From assembly GCA_045602645.1 (NCBI GenBank), contig JAZSBZ010000066.1, positions 1-37,561 on the forward strand: a stretch of 37,561 nucleotides of DNA, given 5' to 3'. Positions 1 to 31,657 of this stretch are shown here, one piece after another. How positions within the stretch are numbered: position 1 is the stretch's first letter; every line of letters starts with the position of its first letter. The notes below the pieces were generated by a model. The model was not told the DNA's origin. It saw nothing but the letters and a program-made list of their open reading frames with translations, and ran no database searches. A program made the position numbers and the translations under genes. This DNA is from Candidatus Scatovivens sp. Its GTDB lineage: Bacteria > Bacillota > Clostridia > TANB77 > CAG-508.

Positions 1-195
1 TTTGTAAAGAAAATTCAAGATGTTAATAAAAATTATCTATATTCAACTCAAGTAGAGTTATTAGAAGCAACAGAAATGTATCTTGAGAATAAAGATAGGA
101 TGCTATTTAGAAAGTATTATGATACATTAAGACTTGATATAGATGATATAAATATGTCTGAAAGATTAATGGAAATTTATGAGAAGCTTGTTTAA
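1..195 (+). CDS. 3' end of a CDS running in from the window edge (unknown product)
   Basis: Frame 1 is open from base 1 (FVKKIQDVNK...LMEIYEKLV) to TAA at 193-195 and is followed by a hairpin and T-tract. Confidence 0.7.
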   Translation, partial: FVKKIQDVNKNYLYSTQVELLEATEMYLENKDRMLFRKYYDTLRLDIDDINMSERLMEIYEKLV

Positions 196-3448: not shown

Positions 3449-3505
3449 AAAACTCATAGGAATCCACAAAACATTAATAAAATGTGGAAAAACCTATGAG
3501 TTTTT
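3449..3505. terminator. Bidirectional terminator between the kinase and the trxA operon
   Basis: AAAACTCATAGG...CCTATGAGTTTT with an inner TCCACA/TGTGGA stem, between convergent genes. Confidence 0.75.
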
Positions 3506-3547
3506 TATATTCTTGTTTATAATTTTGCTATTAATTTGTTAATAATA

Positions 3548-3727
3548 TTAGTCTTTTTTTACAAATAATTTACATCTACAAACTCCTGTATTAGTAAATT
3601 CATCACATGGGCAAAGAGTTGTCTCATCTTGAGTAACTCTACATGGACAGTGTCCGTCTTTTTTATAAATTCCATCAATAATTTTTTGAGCATATTCTTT
3701 GTCTGGATTAATAATATAACCTTTCAT
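3548..3727 (-). CDS. Ferredoxin-thioredoxin reductase catalytic-subunit-like protein, 59 aa (absent from the ORF track)
   Basis: Hand translation: MKGYIINPDKEYAQKIIDGIYKKDGHCPCRVTQDETTLCPCDEFTNTGVCRCKLFVKKD. It has the CPC...CPC...CxC signature and an AAGGAG RBS right after the trxA stop. Confidence 0.85.
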   Translation of the reverse strand: MKGYIINPDKEYAQKIIDGIYKKDGHCPCRVTQDETTLCPCDEFTNTGVCRCKLFVKKD

Positions 3728-3738
3728 ATAATTCTCCT

Positions 3739-4050
3739 TTATTTTAGTTTGTTTAATTCTTCAAGTAATTCTTTTTCTGATCGGAATCCTTCTAATGTTT
3801 TAACCATATTTCCGCCTTTAAATATAATTAAAGTTGGAACTACCTCAACGCTATATTTCATAGCTAATGCTACTGATTCATCTATATCTACTTTTACGAT
3901 TTTAAATTCATCATTTTCATTTGATATTTTTTCTAGTACTGGTGTAAGCATTTGGCAAGGTCCACACCATACAGCAAAAAAGTCTACTACTGTTAATTTT
4001 TCTTCATTTAATACTTCATTTTCGAAGTTTGTTTCGTTAATTACTTTCAT
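3739..4050 (-). CDS. trxA: Thioredoxin
   Basis: WCGPC active site, cis-Pro VPT motif, 103 aa, AGGAGG RBS. Confidence 0.95.
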   Translation of the reverse strand: MKVINETNFENEVLNEEKLTVVDFFAVWCGPCQMLTPVLEKISNENDEFKIVKVDIDESVALAMKYSVEVVPTLIIFKGGNMVKTLEGFRSEKELLEELNKLK

Positions 4051-4156
4051 AAAATTACCTCCTTTAAAAATTAATATAGTATTTCAAAAATATTTTACAA
4101 GAAGAAAAAGGCATTGTCAATAAAAATGAAAATGGCAAGATACAATTAAAAAAATA

Positions 4157-4186
4157 TTGACATACAGTAAAAAAGTAGCATATAAT
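4157..4186 (+). promoter_or_regulatory. Sigma-A promoter of the trpB leader
   Basis: Consensus TTGACA (4157-4162), 18 nt, TATAAT (4181-4186). Confidence 0.8.
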
Positions 4187-4217
4187 AATAGTATAATATT
4201 TTTCAGGAGACATAGCC

Positions 4218-4298
4218 ATGAAGTGTTTTAATGATGTAAAACAAAATAATTTATGGCAAGTATGGGTTAAAAATAGCTCATACTATATTGTCATGTAA
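4218..4298 (+). CDS. Trp leader peptide MKCFNDVKQNNLWQVWVKNSSYYIVM
   Basis: AGGAGA RBS, ATG at 4218, TGG codons at 4254 and 4263, TAA at 4296-4298; overlaps the attenuator hairpins. Confidence 0.7.
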   Translation: MKCFNDVKQNNLWQVWVKNSSYYIVM

Positions 4299-4372
4299 AA
4301 ATATTTAGTTAATCTATTTATTGTATACGAAGGCGTATGTATGAGTAATTGAGCTCGTATGTGCGCTTTTTT
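4259..4372 (+). promoter_or_regulatory. Transcription attenuator (1:2 protector, 2:3 antiterminator, 3:4 terminator)
   Basis: 1:2 is AGTATGGGTTA-aaaa-TAGCTCATACT (4259-4284). 2:3 is CTCATAC (4277-4283) with GTATGAG (4339-4345). 3:4 is GCGTATGTATGAG/CTCGTATGTGCGC followed by TTTTTT (4333-4372). Confidence 0.75.
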
Positions 4373-4395
4373 GTTGTATTAAGGAGGTGGGATAT

Positions 4396-4560
4396 ATGAA
4401 CAAAAATTGGCACTGGCCTATGGCCAGAGAAAGAAAATTAAATATTAAGTCAAAAACAAATTTAAAAAATAAAATTGAAAAGGAGATTTTTTATTATGGA
4501 AAATTATGGAGAATTTGGTGGTTTATATGTGCCACAAAACTTAAGAGAAAGATTAGATGA
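4396..4560 (+). CDS. Second Trp-containing uORF (MNKNWHWP..., 54 aa) overlapping the trpB start out of frame
   Basis: Strong AAGGAGGTG RBS (4381-4389), ATG at 4396, Trp codons 5 and 7; reads through the trpB RBS to TGA at 4558-4560. Confidence 0.5.
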
Positions 4561-5656
4561 AGTAAAGAAGGAATTTGAAAAACAAAAAGATAATGAGGAA
4601 TTTAATAAAGAATATATTTATTATTTAAAACAATATGTTGGAAGACCAACACCGGTATATTATGCAGAAAATTTAAGCAAAAGCTTAGGTGGAGCTAAAA
4701 TCTATTTAAAAAGGGAAGATTTAAATCATACAGGTGCTCACAAAATAAACAATGCTATTGGCCAAATACTTCTTGCTAAAAAGATGGGAAAAACACATGT
4801 AATTGCAGAGACTGGAGCTGGGCAACATGGTGTAGCAACAGCAACTGTATGTAGCTTATTTGATATAAAATGCACAATATTTATGGGGAAAGAAGATATA
4901 AGAAGACAAAGAGTTAATGTAGAGAAAATGAAACTTTTAGGTGCTACAGTAAGAGAAGTAACTAGAGGTGAAGGTGTATTAAAAGATGCTGTAGATGATG
5001 CGTTTGAATTTTTTGTAGAAAATGATGATGTGTTTTACTTAATTGGATCTGCAGTAGGTCCTGCACCATATCCAGAAATGGTTAAACACTTTCAAAAGAT
5101 TATCGGGGAAGAAGCTAAAAAACAAGTAAAAGAGTTAGAAGGAAAATTACCTAAAGCAGTAATTGCTTGTGTAGGTGGTGGAAGTAATGCAATAGGGATG
5201 TTTACTGATTTTGTTAAAGAAGAAAATGTTAAATTATATGGAATAGAAGGAGCAGGTCTTGGAATAGAAACAGGAAAACATGCGGCAAGTATGCAAAATA
5301 ATACGATTGGAATTATGCATGGAATGAAAACTTATATTATGCAAGATAAAGATGGAAATGTAAAAGATGCATATTCAATTTCAGCAGGACTTGATTATCC
5401 AGGTATTGGGCCAGAACATGCATATTTATCAAGTATAGGTAGAGTAAAATATGATTCAATTACTGATAAGGAAGCAGTAAATGCCTTTAAAGCATTAACA
5501 AGATATGAAGGAATTATTCCAGCATTAGAGTCTAGCCATGCGGTAGCATATAGTATGAAAATAGCAAAAGAATATGATAAAGATGATATTATTTTAGTTA
5601 ATTTATCTGGAAGAGGCGATAAAGATATTGAGCAAATTTTATCTTTAGAAGATTAA
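4496..5656 (+). CDS. trpB: Tryptophan synthase beta chain (stand-alone)
   Basis: PLP-lysine motif [51 protein letters not shown]. The probable start is ATG 4496 after AAGGAG. Confidence 0.97.
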
Positions 5657-6021
5657 TATAACTTTTGTAAATTAGAAATAAGGATAAGTAAATTTTTTGG
5701 AGTAATGTAGATATAATCAAAGTCTAGTTTAAACACGGCTGGAAAATTAGTTTTAAATTTATCGAGGTTTAATCTTGTAAAAAGATTTTCTATATTTTTG
5801 ATAATTTGTTTTTCAGGTTTATTAAAATTTTTACTAGTTAAAGAGCATAAATCTATTAGCTTAATTTCATCGAGATTAAATTCTGAAGAGTTTTTAATTA
5901 AATCTCTATAATAGATATACCCCTTAGAGCAAATATTAAATCCTAGTCGATTTAAAATAGAATCAATATTTAAAAAATTAAATAATTGTTTATCTTCAGT
6001 ACAACTATTAATTTTTTCCAT
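5653..6021 (-). CDS. Stand-alone Spo0A C-terminal (DNA-binding)-like domain protein
   Basis: [21 protein letters not shown] resembles Spo0A_C IIHEIGVPAHIKGYxYLREAI, followed by an HTH-like segment and PKNLLILIS. Start ATG 6021 after AGGAGGT. No receiver domain. Confidence 0.65.
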
Positions 6022-6081
6022 ATTGTAACCTCCTGATGAGTATAATTTACACGAAATAAAAGAAAACATCAAATTAAAAGT

Positions 6082-6223
6082 GTTGCGCATCGCGCGACAA
6101 AAATAGAGTATAAAAGTTGCATTGTATGCAACAAAAATGAAAGGAATCTTAAAAGTACAAATAAATTAAAAAAGAAAAAGAAGTAAAAATTAAAAAATCA
6201 GAAAAAGTTGATTTTTACGCAAC
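6082..6223. promoter_or_regulatory. Operator cluster A: three 17-bp GTTG-N9-CAAC-type sites
   Basis: GTTGCGCATCGCGCGAC (6082-6098), GTTGCATTGTATGCAAC (6116-6132), GTTGATTTTTACGCAAC (6207-6223). Confidence 0.75.
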
Positions 6224-6246
6224 AAAGCCGGCTATTAGCCGGCTTT
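6224..6246 (-). terminator. Terminator of 6258..6998
   Basis: AAAGCCGGCTA-t-TAGCCGGCTTT inverted repeat just past the stop codon. Confidence 0.75.
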
Positions 6247-6257
6247 AATGTTTTTAT

Positions 6258-6998
6258 TTATTTTTTTGATTCTTTATTATTAATTATTCTAAAAGATTTG
6301 TAATCTTCTTCAGAATATGTTTTCATATCTTCTTTTGAAAGACAGTCATATGTATAAGTTAATTTTTCTCTTGTTTTAAGTACTTCTACATCATCTCTTA
6401 CAGTATATTCTTCTCTACATACAATACATCCAGTTTCATGATCTACGTAGTAGTAATCAACTTCGTTATGATCTTCATAGTAAGAAGTAAATGAAATTAA
6501 GAAACATCTTGTTTCTTCATAAAATTCAATTCCATGATATTCATAGTTGTATAAATTTTCATTTGCAGCATGTTTTCTGATATATGTATCAAAGTATATT
6601 GAAAAGTTATCATAGCAATAATCAAAGAAAATATCATCAATAGAGACGGTATTATTATCAATGTTTACTGTAACTTGAGTATTGCTTGAAAAATCAGTAT
6701 ATGTTTTTTCTACTATATTTCCAATATCGTTATATCCGTCTACGTATAAGTTATCATCTAATCTGTATATTTCTGCAACAGTAAATGTTTCGTCAAGTTC
6801 AGAATCATACATTTCATATTTTGCTAAATAGTTATTAGAAATATGTTCTGGGTTTTGAATTTTTTCAAGAACAATTCCTAAAGTATTCCTTTGAATTGTA
6901 AAAAAATGAATAGCATTGTTAAACAGTATATATAAAATCCCTATACCAACAGCGGCTATTATTAGAAATGAAAGTATACTTGCTAATTTCTTTTTCAT
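6258..6998 (-). CDS. Membrane-anchored extracellular hypothetical protein (Tyr/acidic, beta-rich)
   Basis: MKKK plus an N-terminal hydrophobic helix; GGAGGT RBS before ATG 6998. Confidence 0.75.
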   Translation of the reverse strand: MKKKLASILSFLIIAAVGIGILYILFNNAIHFFTIQRNTLGIVLEKIQNPEHISNNYLAKYEMYDSELDETFTVAEIYRLDDNLYVDGYNDIGNIVEKTYTDFSSNTQVTVNIDNNTVSIDDIFFDYCYDNFSIYFDTYIRKHAANENLYNYEYHGIEFYEETRCFLISFTSYYEDHNEVDYYYVDHETGCIVCREEYTVRDDVEVLKTREKLTYTYDCLSKEDMKTYSEEDYKSFRIINNKESKK

Positions 6999-8620: not shown

Positions 8621-8896
8621 ATGAATAATATAACAGGAGAAGAAGACATGATTGAGGTAGATGTTTCACCTTATACTCTTGAAAAAGCATTTACAGATTA
8701 TAAACATTACTTAGCAATGAAACCGCTTTCTAAAATAGAGAAGTTAGTCTTATATACACTAATAGTTGAGCTAACTCCACTTGGAGTAGCGTGTAAGAAA
8801 CTGAAGATGAGTAAATATGAAGTTATAAAGACAAAAGAAAAAGCATTAAGAAATTTTAAAGCTAATTTAAAGAGAATTATAAAGGAGAATAAGTAA
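8621..8896 (+). CDS. Small sigma-70 region-4-like HTH protein
   Basis: LSKIEKLVLY...ACKKLKMSKYEVIKTKEKALRNFK fits the sigma r4 pattern; stop/start overlap (TAATG) with the next gene. Confidence 0.6.
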   Translation: MNNITGEEDMIEVDVSPYTLEKAFTDYKHYLAMKPLSKIEKLVLYTLIVELTPLGVACKKLKMSKYEVIKTKEKALRNFKANLKRIIKENK

Positions 8897-10305
8897 TGGC
8901 TAATAAAAACGTAAAAGTAATATACAAGAAGATAGAACCAGAATTCTTAAACAAATATGGATATATAAACTTAAATCATAGAGAAGTAAATACAAAAAGC
9001 GATTTAGTTGAAATAGCGAGTATTTTTAGAAATCCAATGTATGAAACTTTTAGAATCATATATATGAAAAATAAAAGTATTGTTGGGTATGAATCAATAT
9101 CAAGCAGAGGTACACGAACTGTAGAGATATTTCCTAAATCAAAATCAGGAAGGAATACTAATGAAAAATGTTTTTATAAGATTTCTGACAGAATGAGAAG
9201 ATTAAATGCAAATGGATATTATATGGTTCACAATCATCCAAGTGGACATGCTAAAGCATCAAGAGATGACTTAAAAGTTACAGAAGCATTTGCTGAGAAT
9301 CTTGATGGATTTCTAGGGCATTTAATTGTTAATACAGAAAGTTATGCATGGATTGATGTAGATAAATATGGAATTGCAAAAGCAGACAATTTCCAAGAAG
9401 TAAAAAAATTAAAGAAGGATAGGTATTATAAGATGTTAAATAAGAAATCAATATATGATGTAAAAATAGAATCAAGAGAGGATTTGGTAGCATTAATGCA
9501 CCATATTAAAAATAGTAAGGATTATTCTAGTCTAATATTTTGTGATGCAAGAGGAAAGATAAGAATGATTCAAGATATGCCAAATAGATTCTTAAATATG
9601 AAAGATGAACAGTTAGAAGGATATCTTGCAAATCAAAAATTATTAAATGGAGCAACAAGGGTATTCTTTGCAACAACAGATAATGAGGTTTATAAAAAGG
9701 CTATTAAGTTCTGGCAGAAAGAAGTATTCTTAGATGCAATTTGTTATAAGGAAGAAGACAGTAGAATTTATACATATGAAAAAGTAAGGGTAGAGACAGT
9801 AGATAATATTGAGAACATTAATAGGATAAGACAATTCGAAGAAATGGAAGAAAAGATAGAAGAGCTTAGAGAGACTAATAAAGCATTAGCGGTTACTGAA
9901 GACAATGAAACCTATAAAAGACCGGATGTATTAAAAGTATTATTAAAAAGAGTAGGAAAAGAACCTGAAGTTGTAGAGATAAAAAATAATCTAGTAACAA
10001 AACAAGAATTAGTAGGAGGGTTAATAGAAGTAGTTCAATATGATGATGTGATTATTATTTGTAATGAAGAAGGTAAAGTTTTAGGATTACCACCAAATCT
10101 TATTTTTGAACTTGATTATATTGCAGGAGATTGCTTCATTGTAGGAGATGATTATGAACATGGAGATTTTAAAAGTTTAACTGACGATGAGATTAGAAGA
10201 TATAAAAAAGATTTAAGTGATAGAGGATTTAAATATAAAAGTGAAGATGATTTTATCCCCTCAAAAGAAAAAGAGCGCGGAGAGCGCATGCGAGGGAAAG
10301 CTTAG
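8896..10305 (+). CDS. RadC/JAB-like domain protein fused to a C-terminal DUF3846-like domain
   Basis: HNHPSG...SRDD JAB metal motif; C-terminal QELVGGLIEVV...IICNEEGKVLGLPPN...IAGDCFIVG. Confidence 0.7.
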   Translation: MANKNVKVIYKKIEPEFLNKYGYINLNHREVNTKSDLVEIASIFRNPMYETFRIIYMKNKSIVGYESISSRGTRTVEIFPKSKSGRNTNEKCFYKISDRMRRLNANGYYMVHNHPSGHAKASRDDLKVTEAFAENLDGFLGHLIVNTESYAWIDVDKYGIAKADNFQEVKKLKKDRYYKMLNKKSIYDVKIESREDLVALMHHIKNSKDYSSLIFCDARGKIRMIQDMPNRFLNMKDEQLEGYLANQKLLNGATRVFFATTDNEVYKKAIKFWQKEVFLDAICYKEEDSRIYTYEKVRVETVDNIENINRIRQFEEMEEKIEELRETNKALAVTEDNETYKRPDVLKVLLKRVGKEPEVVEIKNNLVTKQELVGGLIEVVQYDDVIIICNEEGKVLGLPPNLIFELDYIAGDCFIVGDDYEHGDFKSLTDDEIRRYKKDLSDRGFKYKSEDDFIPSKEKERGERMRGKA

Positions 10306-10355: not shown

Positions 10356-11357
10356 ATGGGTATACCAATTATTAGAAATGTTAAGCATACACTAGGTAGA
10401 TTAACATGGGTATATAGACACAATGAAAGAAAAAACATCAATTATTCTAATAAAGAAATTGATGAGACTAAAACTAAAAATAATTATTGGTTAAAGAAAC
10501 CGGAAAATCCTTACGTAAAAGAATTCTTTCTAATTAGAGAAAAGAATAACTTATTCGGTAGTCTTAGAAAAAATTCTAAAGCGGTATGTGAATATGTTAT
10601 AGGATGTAGTGACAATTACTTTGAAGAGATTGGTGCAGAAGAAACTAAAAGATATTTTGAAGAGGCATATAAGTTTGTTCAAAATTATAAGGATTTAGGA
10701 GAGAAGTATATTATTTCTGCTGTTGTTCATATGGACGAGACTAATCCACACATGCATTTAACATACATTCCAGTAGTACATAAGGTTAATCCAATGACAG
10801 GAGGTAAGTTTGATAAGATAGCATGCTCAGAATTTTGGGGGCAAAGATTTAGTTATTCTAATTTACATGAAGCGTTTCATAATCATATGATAGATGCAGG
10901 TTTTGAACTTGAAAGAGGTGCGTTTACAAAAATTCAATTTATTCCAGTTAGTAAGTTAAAGGTACTTACTAATTATGAGGCACAGAAATTAGAACTTCAG
11001 ATGAATAAGCCTGAAGAGGAAATAGAGACAGATGATATAAATGTTTTAAGAGAGGAATACAAAAGAGTAGTTAAAAAGATAAATAATATTTCAAGGCAGT
11101 ATGCTAAAGTAAAAGCGATTATTGAAAATAATGTTAAAAAGATGGAATATTTATTCGAAGAAAACGAAAGATTATCAAGTAATTATAGAGCAGAAAAACA
11201 AAGAAATTCTTGGTATAAATTCTGCATTAATAAAGTATTTGAGTGTGTGAGTATATTATTTAATTTCCCAGAAAATAGACTAAAATCTATAGCTGGTAGA
11301 TTTATTGAAAGTACAAAAGAAGAAAATGTTGAAAAAGAAGTACAAACTACCAAATAA
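10356..11357 (+). CDS. MobV/Pre-family relaxase (plasmid recombination enzyme)
   Basis: N-terminal HNER motif, HUH motif VHMDETNPHMH, coiled-coil C-terminus. Confidence 0.88.
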   Translation: MGIPIIRNVKHTLGRLTWVYRHNERKNINYSNKEIDETKTKNNYWLKKPENPYVKEFFLIREKNNLFGSLRKNSKAVCEYVIGCSDNYFEEIGAEETKRYFEEAYKFVQNYKDLGEKYIISAVVHMDETNPHMHLTYIPVVHKVNPMTGGKFDKIACSEFWGQRFSYSNLHEAFHNHMIDAGFELERGAFTKIQFIPVSKLKVLTNYEAQKLELQMNKPEEEIETDDINVLREEYKRVVKKINNISRQYAKVKAIIENNVKKMEYLFEENERLSSNYRAEKQRNSWYKFCINKVFECVSILFNFPENRLKSIAGRFIESTKEENVEKEVQTTK

Positions 11358-13296: not shown

Positions 13297-14013
13297 CTAT
13301 CTATCTTCGCGACCTGCAATATGTGAATCAAGTTGGCTTTGAAGTGTTTCAATATTCTTTGAAATACCTGCTATAATTGCTCTTTTTAATAATGCATTTA
13401 AATGTTCAGGTTCTGGAGAATATTCTTTTGGAATAGCAGCTAAAACAAATTTATCTCTAATACTATATTGAGTAATTCTTCCATTTTCGTCTTTTTTACG
13501 AGATAAATTATTAAGTAGTATTCCTAAGTCCATTGGGAAACCATGTTCTTTTGAAAATTGTCTTGCAAAAGTAATTGTTGTTCTTGTATTTCCATCTCTA
13601 AATGGATGTATTTTCCAAAGTTCTGTAAGATGATCTGTAAAAGTTGCAACTTTTTCATCAAAAGGAAGCGAGTCCCAATTTACCTCATTCATTTTTTTAA
13701 GACATGCATTCATTTCTTTACTAATATCTTTTGCTTGAGAATATTCTAAACTTAAACCTGGAAGAACAAGTTCTTCTTTAATGATAGGTACAGTTCTATA
13801 TTCACCAGCCCAATCAAAGATGTCTTCAAATATATGTTTATGTATTGATTTAAAATATTTTGCATCAAATTGTTGCTTGTAAGACATGTCTACGTCTAAG
13901 AATTTGGCGAAAGTAATGTCTCTTTCTGCTCTATTTAATTCATCATAAGAGGTGATACCTAATTTGTTTCTTAATACCGCATTTTCGTCATCATATACAT
14001 ATGGATCGTGCAT
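13297..14013 (-). CDS. Fic-domain protein (FicT-like toxin) with a non-canonical motif
   Basis: DPYVY...VLRNKLGI N-terminus, IHKHIFEDIFDWAGEYR, HPFRDGNTRTTI. Confidence 0.92.
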   Translation of the reverse strand: MHDPYVYDDENAVLRNKLGITSYDELNRAERDITFAKFLDVDMSYKQQFDAKYFKSIHKHIFEDIFDWAGEYRTVPIIKEELVLPGLSLEYSQAKDISKEMNACLKKMNEVNWDSLPFDEKVATFTDHLTELWKIHPFRDGNTRTTITFARQFSKEHGFPMDLGILLNNLSRKKDENGRITQYSIRDKFVLAAIPKEYSPEPEHLNALLKRAIIAGISKNIETLQSQLDSHIAGREDR

Positions 14014-28884: not shown

Positions 28885-29159
28885 TAGCTAAAAAAAGTAA
28901 TATAAAAATGAAGACTGTAGAGTTTTTAAAACTTTGCAGTCTTTTTTTGACTAAAAGATAAAGTTGTCATTGCCTTTAAGAGTTTTCCATGTTATAATGC
29001 AGTCTGGAATAACATGGTTATTTCAGGTAACACTGCAAGTTTGCTGAAATTTTGGCATTCTTGTATATCCTTATGTCTCTCTAAAAAGGAGGTTATTTTT
29101 TGTTAAGAGAGATGATCGTAACTTTAGTAACTGTTGGACAATGAAAGGAGTGTTTTAGT

Positions 29160-31535
29160 ATGCCTTATACTATCAACCTGACGACACTCAAATCTCATTA
29201 TAGAGACGCTGCACGGACCCTTTACAACAAGGAATTGAGTCAGCTTTCTCCTCATGAGATTAACGGTGTCATCGCAAACGTGGTGAAGAACAAAGTAATT
29301 TGTAATAGCTGGGAATACTCTCAGAATCTGTATTCTCAGCAGAGAATTGCTATTTACTTCTCCATCGAATTCCTCATTGGTCGTGTTGTGCTCGATGCAC
29401 TGAATAACACTGGCCTTTTGGAGGAAACCAGAAAGATTTTTGAAGAAGAAGGAATCGATATCAACTGCCTGGAGGCTGTTGACGATCCTGCACTCGGCAA
29501 TGGTGGCCTCGGTCGTCTTGCTGCCTGCTTCATTGAATCTGCTGCTACTTTGGGAATCCCGCTTTACGGCGTTGGACTTTTCTACAAGTACGGTTTGTTC
29601 AAGCAGGCATTTGACGAAAACGGCTGGCAGATTGCCAAAAGTGATGACTGGACTGCTGGAGGAATTGATCCTTGGTTTGAAGGTCATGAAGACGAATACG
29701 AAATCGTAGAATTCCAGGATACCAGGGTTAAAGCTGTTCCTTACGTGATGCCGGTTGTTGGTTACAAGACTAACGCGTTCCCGCTCACTCTTTGGAAAGC
29801 TGAACCTATCGAAGGACAGACCAACGCATCTGCTGCAGCAATCTCTGACTGGCTGTATCCGAGCGATGGTGACGATGATGGTAAGATCCTCAGAATCCGT
29901 CAGGAATATTTCTTTGTTAGTGCAATGCTTCAGAGAATTTTCCGAATCCACAAAGAAAAGCATGGTACTCTTGATAACATCGGAGATTACTATTATTTCC
30001 AGATGAACGATACCCATCCGGTATTCGGTTGTTTGGAATTTATTAGACTCCTGAAACTTGAGGGTTATACGTTTGATCGTGCGTTTGAGATGGCAAGAGA
30101 TTGTTTTGCTTATACTAATCACACGATTATGCCGGAAGCCCTTGAGAAGTGGAATATTTTGCTTTTCAAGAACCTGCTGCCTAACGTCTTTAAGGTAGTT
30201 GAAGAAATTAATCAGAAGCTCATTGATGAACTCAAGAGAGAAGATTATTTCTGCAACACCCGAATGGAAAATGGGCGCTATGTTAAGGATCCCGCATGGG
30301 ACAGAATCAATCCGTATGAAATGTTCCAGGGGGGATACGTTCATATGAGCCGTATCGCATGCTATGTCGGTCGCAAGATCAATGGCGTTGCATCGGTTCA
30401 CACGGAAATTATCAAGAAGGATCTTTTGAGCATTTGGAATGCTCGCTATCCTTGGAAGTTCAATAACAAGACTAACGGCGTTACTCCTAGACGTTGGCTG
30501 AGACTGGCTAATCCGGATCTGGCTGCGTTCTTGGACAAGTATGTTGGTCCTGAATGGACTACCGACATGACTCTGCTCGAAGGACTTGAGCAGTACAAAA
30601 ACGACAGGGAAGTCCTTGCAGAATTCGCAGCTGCGAAGTTTGAAGCCAAGAAACGTTTGGCAGCCTACATCGAAGAGAAGGAAGGTATCTATGTAGATCC
30701 TACCAGTATTTTCGACTGTCAGGTTAAGAGAATCCATGAGTATAAGCGTCAGCTTATGAATGCTCTTAGAATTCTTTACATTTACGACCAGCTTAAGAAG
30801 GGTAAACTTCCGAATTTCTACAAGACAACCTTCATCATCGGCGGCAAGGCCGCGTCTTCCTACAAGAAGGCTATCCAGACTATTGCTCTTATTAAGGACA
30901 TTCAGCAGCTCGTTAATAACGACCCTGATGTTAATGATAAGATGCAGGTTGTGTTCCTTACGAACTTCAATGTTAGCTATGCTGAAAAGGTATATGCTGC
31001 TGCCAACTTCTCTGAACAGATTAGTACTGCAGGTACCGAAGCTTCTGGTACCGGTAATATGAAGTTCATGATGAACGGCGCACCTACCATTGGTACTCTT
31101 GATGGTGCCAACATTGAGATCGTTGAGGAAGCAAGTTCCAAGAACAACTATATTTTTGGTGCGACAGTTGAAGAACTTAAGCGTATTAAGTCTATCTACA
31201 ATCACCATACTATCCTCGAATCCAACAAGGAAATGGTAGATCTGCTCGCTTACCTTAAGGGTGAGAGAACGCTCAGAGCTACCTACTGGGATCTCGTGAA
31301 CACTTTGCTTTACGACGACAAGTATTATGTGATGTATGACCTTGAGTCTTATATCAAGATTTCCCTGAAGGCAATCGCGGACTATGGTTTTGAACAGCAG
31401 ACTGGAGACCTGACTCATCATACGAGAAAGGCCTTCAAGAACACCGCCCATAGTGGCAAGTTCTCTTCTGACCGTACGATCCTTGAGTATGCCAACGACA
31501 TTTGGTATATCAAGCCTGTAGAAGTTAACAACTAA
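29160..31535 (+). CDS. glgP: Glycogen/maltodextrin phosphorylase
   Basis: GNGGLGRLAACF, QMNDTHP, TNGVTPRRW, KRIHEYKRQ, EASGTGNMK (PLP lysine). Confidence 0.96.
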   Translation: MPYTINLTTLKSHYRDAARTLYNKELSQLSPHEINGVIANVVKNKVICNSWEYSQNLYSQQRIAIYFSIEFLIGRVVLDALNNTGLLEETRKIFEEEGIDINCLEAVDDPALGNGGLGRLAACFIESAATLGIPLYGVGLFYKYGLFKQAFDENGWQIAKSDDWTAGGIDPWFEGHEDEYEIVEFQDTRVKAVPYVMPVVGYKTNAFPLTLWKAEPIEGQTNASAAAISDWLYPSDGDDDGKILRIRQEYFFVSAMLQRIFRIHKEKHGTLDNIGDYYYFQMNDTHPVFGCLEFIRLLKLEGYTFDRAFEMARDCFAYTNHTIMPEALEKWNILLFKNLLPNVFKVVEEINQKLIDELKREDYFCNTRMENGRYVKDPAWDRINPYEMFQGGYVHMSRIACYVGRKINGVASVHTEIIKKDLLSIWNARYPWKFNNKTNGVTPRRWLRLANPDLAAFLDKYVGPEWTTDMTLLEGLEQYKNDREVLAEFAAAKFEAKKRLAAYIEEKEGIYVDPTSIFDCQVKRIHEYKRQLMNALRILYIYDQLKKGKLPNFYKTTFIIGGKAASSYKKAIQTIALIKDIQQLVNNDPDVNDKMQVVFLTNFNVSYAEKVYAAANFSEQISTAGTEASGTGNMKFMMNGAPTIGTLDGANIEIVEEASSKNNYIFGATVEELKRIKSIYNHHTILESNKEMVDLLAYLKGERTLRATYWDLVNTLLYDDKYYVMYDLESYIKISLKAIADYGFEQQTGDLTHHTRKAFKNTAHSGKFSSDRTILEYANDIWYIKPVEVNN

Positions 31536-31657
31536 ATAAGACATAGGAAATCCCGGGGACATTTAGTCCCCGGGATAACTCATTTATAGGGTAAAAACAG
31601 GTGATTGAAATATTGATATTAGTTGACATAACATCAAAAATATGATATACTAAACTT

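Follow-up and report, generated by a model that had tools for sequence, protein, structure and literature searches.

A candidate leader-peptide attenuator upstream of an apparently orphan trpB gene in Candidatus Scatovivens, and its histidine-codon relatives

Leader-peptide attenuation is a textbook mechanism. In Bacillus subtilis, the rtpA leader, reportedly described by Chen and Yanofsky in 2004, is said to consist of a T-box followed by a Trp-codon leader peptide, rtpLP. The mechanism of trpL attenuation is set out in PMC8632103. Among Firmicutes, leader-peptide attenuation has been shown for yfmH-yfmG of B. subtilis (PMC7491331), and attenuators for branched-chain amino acids are reported for ilv-leu of Listeria and ilv of Staphylococcus aureus (PMC5864092, PMC5794164). 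For His, Ashniev et al. (2022, PMC9413887) predicted attenuators in the B. cereus group, Peptostreptococcaceae and Erysipelotrichales. Seliverstov et al. (2005, PMC1262725) assign T-boxes, and in no case classical attenuation, to Firmicute aminoacyl-tRNA synthetase genes. Here, we analysed a stretch of 37,561 nucleotides from Candidatus Scatovivens sp. (Bacillota; Clostridia; contig JAZSBZ010000066.1, forward strand), which we call the window, and in particular the leader of its trpB gene, which encodes the beta subunit of tryptophan synthase. We propose, with a probability of about 0.8, that this leader is a ribosome-mediated, Trp-tRNA-responsive transcription attenuator controlling an orphan trpB. 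All results are computational. A preliminary description of the leader had regarded attenuation of this kind as typical of Proteobacteria and Actinobacteria. T-box or TRAP control is indeed the norm for trp genes of Firmicutes, but the Firmicute His, branched-chain amino acid and yfmH examples speak against a confinement to those two groups.

The host genome (1.62 Mb in 117 contigs, 87% complete, 28.7% G+C) carries trpB at 4496-5656 on the + strand, preceded by a Shine-Dalgarno (SD) sequence AAGGAG at 4480-4485 (+; read from sequence). The 386-residue product matches TIGR00263 with 605 bits (cut-off 392) and is devoid of Trp residues, as were all 18 TrpB proteins checked. Since neither trpA nor IGPS was found in the 87%-complete assembly, and trpD had no match above the cut-off in it, the gene looks like an orphan indole-to-Trp salvage gene, in an assembly that is 13% incomplete.

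Upstream of trpB, a sigma-70-type promoter (TTGACA-18-TATAAT, 4157-4186, +) matches the consensus at 12 of 12 positions, the sole site to do so among 16 promoter-like sites in 3500-6500. The preliminary description had recognised this promoter, which lies just outside the bounds that were first given for the element. It is followed by an SD sequence AGGAG (4205-4209, +; read from sequence) and by a leader open reading frame (ORF) of 26 codons, MKCFNDVKQNNLWQVWVKNSSYYIVM (4218-4298, +; ATG at 4218, TAA at 4296-4298), which translates, as originally read, into a peptide with W-Q-V-W. The first Trp codon (4254-4256, codon 13) occupies what we call the sensor position and the second (4263-4265, codon 16) lies inside segment 1 of the hairpin described below. 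Given that Trp accounts for 0.65% of codons in the long ORFs of this genome, the probability of finding at least two Trp codons among 26 is approximately 0.012.

The leader RNA can form three helices. Hairpin 1:2 (4259-4284, +; -12.0 kcal/mol, z -8.3), the putative anti-antiterminator and possibly a pause hairpin, joins segment 1 (GUAUGGGUUA, 4260-4269) to segment 2 (AAUAGCUCAUAC, 4272-4283). The antiterminator 2:3 (4272-4350, +) pairs segment 2 with segment 3 (GUAUGAGUAAUU, 4339-4350) and includes a further, inner stem close to where the leader ORF stops; with segments 1 and 4 omitted from the fold, its energy is -19.1 kcal/mol (z -2.8). The intrinsic terminator 3:4 (4329-4372, +) consists of an 18-bp stem with arms at 4329-4346 and 4353-4370, a 6-nt loop and a T6 run at 4367-4372 (-22.5 kcal/mol, z -7.3); in the region, five terminator-like sites were observed with 0.6 expected. 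Because segment 2 is common to 1:2 and 2:3, and segment 3 to 2:3 and 3:4, the helices are mutually exclusive. These features had been recognised in the preliminary description and held up when folding energies were computed, including the pairing of CTCATAC in segment 2 (4277-4283) with the 5' arm of the T6 terminator, where GTATGAG (4339-4345) is its exact complement.

We infer the ribosome positions and the response to Trp from this geometry and from textbook trpL. Transcription would start approximately 7-10 nt past the -10 box (4181-4186), and a ribosome would then translate the 26-codon leader. When Trp-tRNA is scarce, the ribosome would stall with Trp codon 13 (4254) or 16 (4263) in its A site and mask segment 1. 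With the codon at 4254 in the A site, coverage would extend to about 4266-4269 and include all of segment 1; with the codon at 4263 there, it would extend to about 4275-4278 and leave the segment-2 core CUCAUAC for segment 3. Pairing of segment 2 with segment 3 would preclude the terminator and allow readthrough into trpB. When Trp-tRNA is plentiful, the ribosome would reach the stop codon (A site 4296) and cover the RNA from about 4279-4282 on. With the inner stem and the 3' portion of segment 2 hidden in this way, 3:4 could form and transcription would end at the T6 run. If the leader were not translated at all, 1:2 and 3:4 would form and transcription would likewise terminate. Most likely, the switch would thus turn on indole-to-Trp salvage only at low levels of charged tRNA-Trp. 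Between segments 2 and 3 lie 55 nt in the window and approximately 30-75 nt in relatives; therefore, even a ribosome trailing the polymerase by several tens of nucleotides could determine whether transcription continues.

Next to the geometry, the conservation of the leader supports this proposal. From 47 related TrpB loci, the upstream regions of the 30 closest were examined (L001-L030, 60-81% identity; not L031-L047). A homologous leader ORF with the 1:2 hairpin and the terminator was present at 23 of these, each leader with at least two Trp codons. Four loci carry a T-box instead (L018, L023, L027, L028), one has another ORF directly upstream of trpB (L029), and two contigs were too short to judge (L003, L024). 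The 23 relatives, the window and one locus from a scan of the order (L056) make up a set of 25 Trp-type trpB loci, all of which have at least two Trp codons in the leader. The sensor motif reads W-W-x-V-W in 17, x-W-Q-V-W in seven (window included) and R-W-W-R-M in one (L001). In 22 of the 25, the leader ATG is preceded by a strict promoter (TTGACN-16..18-TANANT) whose end lies 17-31 nt away, and an SD sequence of the GGAG type is conserved in the alignment of Trp-type leaders (A1, see below). In all 23 leaders compared, GTA is the Val codon, and the Tyr of segment 2 is encoded by TAC, which makes up only 14% of Tyr codons genome-wide. This suggests that the leader codons are under constraint at the RNA level. 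A K-L-N-N stretch preceding the sensor codons (AAAUUAAAUAAY; columns 1-12 of alignment A4) is also nearly invariant in its nucleotides, in Trp- and His-type leaders alike; it uses preferred A/U-rich codons, and we found no pairing partner or role for it.

Covariation was assessed in two alignments. A1 comprises the window and 22 loci, L001 being excluded as too divergent, and A4 has 23 rows, including five His-type leaders (described below), L058 and L001. The terminator is 97.6% paired in A1, with changes on both sides in five of 15 pairs, a number that rises to 11 of 15 in A4. For the 18 pairs of the antiterminator, 92.6% of 407 cells are paired in A1 (slid controls, 19-49%); both-sided changes occur at six of the 18 pairs, which 24 of 500 shuffles reach, and in 16 cells, which none of 500 shuffles reaches. 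In A4, the antiterminator, which is absent from the covariance model, still pairs in 85.6% of cells, with 20 cells changed on both sides (0/500 shuffles). Helix 1:2 behaves differently from these: its core GUAUGG/CNCAUAC is invariant across the Trp-type loci, five of its seven pairs never vary in A1, where no both-sided change was seen, and both-sided changes appear in two of seven pairs once the His-type leaders are included in A4. An alignment of relatives had been put forward at the outset as a check on the attenuator; in it, Trp codons and helices are conserved at 23 of 30 loci, with covariation in 3:4 and 2:3 (A1) and not in 1:2.

The most telling comparison came from leaders that share the scaffold and differ in their codons. 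We built a covariance model from the Trp leaders (R1) and a second one to which the His types were added (R2). Applied to the window genome, R1 recovered only the window copy, a second match (E 0.9) being a gene-end terminator. In a 151-genome sample of the order, it matched in 11 genomes, of which ten matches are real and one (L064) covers a terminator only. The real matches comprise three Trp leaders before trpB (G000, G017, G073), one Trp leader elsewhere (L058) and six leaders of the His type. With other codons in place of W-W-N, the latter read C-H-H-V-W (L057, genome G030), R-H-H-V-W (L059, G071), R-H-H-A-W (L061, G020), R-R-H-E-A-W (L060, G024) and K-K-S-H-V-W (L062, G097; L063, G103). 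At five of the six, the downstream gene encodes an M20 ArgE/DapE-family deacylase; the M20 genes score 200-221 bits with acetylornithine-deacetylase models, below the cut-offs. In L057, the ORF is a fusion of a histidine-racemase-like N-terminal part, which reaches about 80 bits with HisR/CntK models and hence lies far below the cut-off, to an M20 domain. A genome reached via locus L004 (G155) holds both forms, the Trp type at trpB and the His type (L070, L-C-H-V-W) before an M20 gene with an interrupted reading frame.

The only block that differs between these paralogs is the codon group ahead of segment 1, with Trp codons at trpB and His codons at His-linked genes. Since the His-type leaders keep segment 1 and swap the codons before it, GUAUGG (Val-Trp) is, as judged from these comparisons, a structural element with which segment 1 begins, and specificity would be set by the two to three codons that precede it. 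The second Trp codon of the window does lie inside segment 1 (4263-4265 within 4260-4269), as the preliminary description stated; since the His-type leaders have this codon too, the specific sensor would be the codon or codons immediately ahead of it. Because the paralogs exchange Trp for His codons, the leader ORF is evidently read as codons by ribosomes, and we consider this swap the strongest argument against a mechanism that works through RNA only. Together with the conservation at 23 of 30 loci and the compensatory changes in 3:4 and 2:3, it supports the original suggestion of a ribosome-mediated Trp attenuator. The sensor codons also suggest that the M20 deacylase downstream of the His-type leaders serves histidine supply.

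Some members of the family have further features. In L057, a mini-ORF MKNIITILLWHYHCRRT with H-x-H lies beyond the first terminator and is followed by a hairpin resembling a terminator with a U run (identified by eye); these elements may form a tandem His attenuator. In L062 and L063, the interval between terminator and M20 gene contains a 30-codon ORF rich in Arg and Lys (MNYMMRKRWRKCH...), the TGA of which overlaps the M20 ATG (ATGA), a coupling layout that the trpB loci avoid. The Trp leader found away from trpB (L058; G061:C4:1484-1604) ends in ..N-R-W-W-S-V-W-E-stop and precedes an ORF of 220 amino acids with a weak NAD_binding_8 match only and no NCBIfam match, which would be a gene regulated by Trp.

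The family is unevenly distributed. A trpB above the cut-off occurs in four of the 151 genomes of the order, three of which have the leader; in the remaining one (G083), the trpB match is in two pieces and the leader model had no match. R2 matched in six of 33 genomes of family f5, at the same loci as before, and in a 151-genome sample of the class the only other match was false. Ten genomes reached via trpB loci each hold a copy at trpB, and G302 has two, one per trpB gene. In the samples searched, the scaffold family is thus patchy, with at most two copies per genome, and tied to accessory salvage genes. Given that so few genomes of the order have trpB, the leader-trpB cassette may have been acquired horizontally. 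Matches at L064, L015:84-192, L054, L071 and on the minus strand of L011 were dropped as gene-end terminators. Such false matches arise because ordinary gene ends share the sequence type of the attenuator's terminator: hairpins of the form GCACAU...AUGUGC with a U run also end ordinary genes at L015:145-190, L064, L054 and L071.

Several observations weigh against attenuation as the explanation for this leader. The window itself reads L-W-Q-V-W and has a single Trp codon ahead of segment 1, while 17 of 25 loci have W-W-x-V-W; therefore, its sensitivity may be lower. Within the Trp-type set, the case for helix 1:2 consists of invariance and codon choice. Alignment A4 leans towards the model structure because it was fitted to the covariance model, and the seven antiterminator pairs with both-sided changes in A4 are not above shuffles (133/500). 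When segment 1 is masked, equilibrium folding still prefers the terminator in most loci (19 of 24 folded). The switch must therefore be kinetic, with the ribosome keeping pace with the polymerase; according to Johnson et al. in 2020, transcription and translation are reportedly functionally uncoupled in B. subtilis. Finally, metatranscriptomes from two runs of one study gave contigs within trpB only (4574-4762, 4892-5151, 5335-5870) and no coverage of the leader, in data whose contigs cannot reveal RNA ends.

Trp genes of Firmicutes are usually under T-box or TRAP control, and the leader could accordingly be one that binds a ligand, a protein or a tRNA (riboswitch-like, TRAP-like or a degenerate T-box), with an incidental ORF that ribosomes do not read. 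T-boxes do occur at related trpB loci and elsewhere in the window genome, where five were matched, four of them above the cut-off. Furthermore, hairpin 1:2 and much of the leader are conserved as nucleotides, and the conservation of the ORF could in part be conservation of RNA. However, no Rfam family matched anywhere in the window at the gathering score, and relaxing the threshold to E<=10 within 3500-5500 yielded two chance-level matches and no leader family, Trp_leader (RF00513) included. The window contains neither a T-box match (RF00230) nor a T-box core string, and its longest chain of (G/U)AG repeats is two, in line with what had first been noticed by eye. TRAP-dependent attenuation was taken to involve 9-11 such repeats and an mtrB (TRAP) gene; no such gene (PF02081) turned up in the genome, which is 87% complete. 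SD sequence, ATG and stop codon of the leader ORF stand at conserved positions in 23 loci, and the sensor codons alone swap between trpB and His-linked genes. Together, these findings render such a leader quite improbable.

The T-boxes at related loci are informative in another respect. At L018 (1094-1316), L023 (1118-1340) and L028 (1149-1372), where trpB shares 68-77% identity, they score 85.9-88.8 bits (E ~1e-18), just under the Rfam gathering score of 93, and are therefore missed by default annotation. UGG was read by eye at the specifier position in two alignments, and L018 appears to have a second T-box-like terminator module in tandem. Since related trpB genes carry T-box matches in the place of the leader, orthologous trpB genes appear to have exchanged a tRNA-binding sensor for a ribosome-based one, in either direction.

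The preliminary description overlooked a second ORF with Trp codons, which lies downstream of the terminator. This ORF2 (4396-4560, +; 54 codons, MNKNWHW...) sits between the terminator and trpB behind a perfect 9-nt SD sequence, AAGGAGGUG (4381-4389, +), at which GGAGGTGG is near-invariant in the 25 loci. Its Trp codons are codon 5 (4408-4410) and codon 7 (4414-4416); two Trp codons fall within codons 5-7 in 24 of the 25 loci, and one in L020. In the +1 frame, ORF2 crosses the SD sequence and start codon of trpB; its end lies 62 nt into that gene. The distance between the two start codons is 55, 58, 61, 64, 73, 82 or 100 nt, i.e. 1 mod 3, in 22 of 24 tabulated loci, and ORF2 of L001, judged by translation, is also +1. 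The avoided frame would end ORF2 at an ATGA overlap, the usual layout for translational coupling, whereas the frame that is kept puts its end approximately 60 nt within trpB. Only trpB loci have the spacer GGUGCAUAU, and other spacers are found where the leader is of the His type. ORF2-like ORFs with Trp codons also follow the T-box in L018, L027 and L028. In the window, a perfect G+C-rich hairpin of 6 bp (CUGGCC-UAU-GGCCAG, 4413-4427) spans the second Trp codon of ORF2, within the stretch that gives this locus its spacer of 100 nt (55-82 nt in relatives).

With less confidence than for the leader, we take ORF2 to be probably a second, translational Trp sensor, like rtpLP of B. subtilis. When Trp-tRNA is plentiful, ribosomes on ORF2 would occlude trpB initiation; when it is scarce, they would stall at codons 5 and 7, over the start of ORF2, and the trpB site would stay accessible. 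The perfect 9-nt SD sequence and the frame maintained at spacer lengths of 55-100 nt support this indirectly. That ORF2 is in this way a Trp-tRNA-dependent translational brake on trpB we put at slightly below even odds.

The translation-initiation region of ORF2 (segment 5, 4386-4397, +) is complementary both to segment 4, the 3' arm of the terminator, and to segment 6 (AUAUGUGCCACA, 4525-4536, +), which corresponds to trpB codons ~10-13 and forms 10 of 11 pairs with segment 5. Pairing 5:6 holds in 98.1% of 264 cells in 24 distinct sequences; in 17 of 24 loci, the minimum free energy (MFE) structure of the complete leader-trpB RNA contains it. Pairing 4:5 has seven pairs and is 96.9% paired, with both-sided changes at three pairs (17/500 shuffles) and in five cells (0/500). 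For an RNA that ended at the trpB AUG and had its antiterminator locked, the MFE structure contained 4:5 in 11 of 24 loci; with full-length RNA, 4:5 was found in three of 24 and 5:6 in 16 of 24, in folds that mis-located the terminator arms in three of 24 loci (L010, L011, L025). If these pairings form, they could relay the transcriptional decision to the start of ORF2 and tie ORF2 initiation to trpB translation.

Here, too, part of the evidence points the other way. The exceptions to the +1 rule, L002 and L005, have a distance of 60 nt, with ORF2 in frame with trpB. Covariation of 5:6 does not exceed that of shuffles (216/500), the trpB side being constrained by a Q-Y-V-P motif, and on this count 5:6 was rejected for now as a proven helix. 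Pairing 4:5 is short and rich in G-U pairs, and remains 87.6% paired after a slide by -2. We therefore regard 4:5 and 5:6 as leads, not findings. As to the two exceptions, their in-frame form adds an N-terminal extension of 20 residues, and both genomes have another trpB copy, at which ORF2 is in the +1 arrangement (L007, L013).

ORF2 also bears on another explanation, according to which the hairpins are a constitutive leaky terminator or an mRNA stabiliser, and trpB is controlled mainly at translation through ORF2 and 5:6. The ORF2 module is also found at the T-box-type loci L018 (with 5:6 paired by hand) and L027, and is therefore tied to trpB and not to the leader. The recurrence of 5:6 in MFE structures and the terminators of the same type at ordinary gene ends (L015:145-190, L064) fit this explanation as well. 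The compensatory changes in the antiterminator do not, nor does the retention of leader Trp codons in 25 of 25 loci, and the geometry places a stalled ribosome over segment 1 and a terminating one over segment 2. We consider this explanation marginally less probable than that of a ligand-, protein- or tRNA-binding leader. Least probable of all, and very unlikely, is a nascent arrest peptide sensing free tryptophan like TnaC, in which Trp would induce readthrough: residues other than Trp are conserved in the peptide (K-L-N-N ... V-W ... P-Y-x-F-V-V-L), but conservation at the RNA level explains them, because they map to segments 1 and 2 and the inner antiterminator stem and are common to the His-type leaders, and moreover the regulated enzyme makes Trp and contains none, and the terminator here is intrinsic, whereas TnaC acts on Rho-dependent termination.

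For the Trp-responsive attenuator, these elements can be combined into a wider scheme, which we offer tentatively and regard as unlikely to hold in all its parts: a codon-swappable Trp/His scaffold family in gut Firmicutes with small genomes, a five-helix relay at trpB (1:2, 2:3, 3:4, 4:5, 5:6) and sensing by two upstream ORFs (uORFs), jointly. In the relay, antitermination would free the 3' arm of the terminator, which would mask the ORF2 start. In the mature mRNA, trpB codons ~10-13 would close this start and translation of trpB would open it, and ORF2 ribosomes would act as a brake on trpB initiation only as long as Trp-tRNA is abundant. The same tRNA would thereby be read via two uORFs, once for transcription and once for translation.

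As for the surroundings, a thioredoxin gene (3739-4050) lies divergently upstream of the leader-trpB unit. Between 7619 and 14013, 2-8 kb downstream of trpB, there are genes resembling mobile elements, encoding a helix-turn-helix (HTH) protein, a RadC-like/DUF3846 protein (8896-10305), a Mob_Pre relaxase (10356-11357) and a Fic/DOC protein (13297-14013). Further along, a glycogen/carbohydrate phosphorylase gene (PF00343, 753 bits; 29124-31562, - strand) is opposed by an uninterrupted frame of 812 codons without a Pfam match (29160-31535, +), an overlap that is unusual at 28.7% G+C.

If correct, our reading adds a Trp-specific leader-peptide attenuator to the Firmicutes, whose trp genes are known for T-boxes and TRAP. 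The His-codon paralogs indicate that a leader-peptide attenuator could be re-targeted in the manner of a T-box specifier, and synthetic sensors of amino acids could be modelled on this naturally codon-swapped scaffold. For an unannotated M20 deacylase, the sensor codons further hint at a function, histidine supply. In gut auxotrophs with genomes of ~1.6 Mb, this suggests that indole salvage is regulated by the charging of tRNA-Trp. The long spacer between segments 2 and 3, together with a second, translational checkpoint, may show how ribosome-dependent attenuation operates where the polymerase outruns the ribosome.

Compared with known systems, the leader resembles E. coli trpL in its ORF with Trp codons, the logic of 1:2, 2:3 and 3:4, the intrinsic terminator with a U run, the freeing of segment 2 by a stalled ribosome and the superattenuation without translation that we propose here. 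In contrast to trpL, to which Rfam families reveal no sequence relationship, the Trp codons stand directly before and inside segment 1, the stop codon lies past segment 2 at the inner antiterminator stem (in most members, the window included), and an A/U-rich spacer of 30-75 nt separates segments 2 and 3. Moreover, the gene controlled is a lone trpB instead of a trp operon, and a second Trp-codon ORF follows downstream. With rtpA and rtpLP, the locus shares the tandem sensing of tRNA-Trp, first at transcription and then through a short Trp-codon ORF before the gene, the translation of which interferes with the downstream ribosome-binding site, an effect we suppose for ORF2. Unlike in rtpA, the first sensor is a leader peptide and not a T-box, whereas the T-box-type loci L018, L027 and L028 copy the rtpA layout; unlike rtpLP, ORF2 spans the whole trpB start in the +1 frame instead of ending beside the SD sequence, and the regulated gene is trpB.

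The yfmH, Listeria and S. aureus attenuators are likewise cases of ribosome-mediated attenuation in Firmicutes that answers amino-acid supply (PMC7491331, PMC5864092, PMC5794164). Set apart here by description, they concern other amino acids and genes, and none of them is reported as codon-swappable or as having a second sensor ORF downstream. The full-text literature searched, which mostly excludes subscription journals, describes no leader-peptide attenuator for Trp in a Firmicute, and within the same bounds no codon-swapped attenuator family or tandem layout of two uORFs. The predicted Firmicute His attenuators (PMC9413887) come close: according to that paper, they too combine a leader ORF with a terminator and antiterminator, occur patchily in low-GC Gram-positives and alternate with T-boxes. 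They precede histidine biosynthesis operons, however, and have three to five consecutive His codons, whereas the His-type members described here have one or two and precede M20 deacylase genes. With that comparison made by description only, the leader represents a new sequence family and a variant of a known mechanism, of which the modularity of the scaffold, with Trp or His codons, and the second ORF with Trp codons would be new to a specialist.

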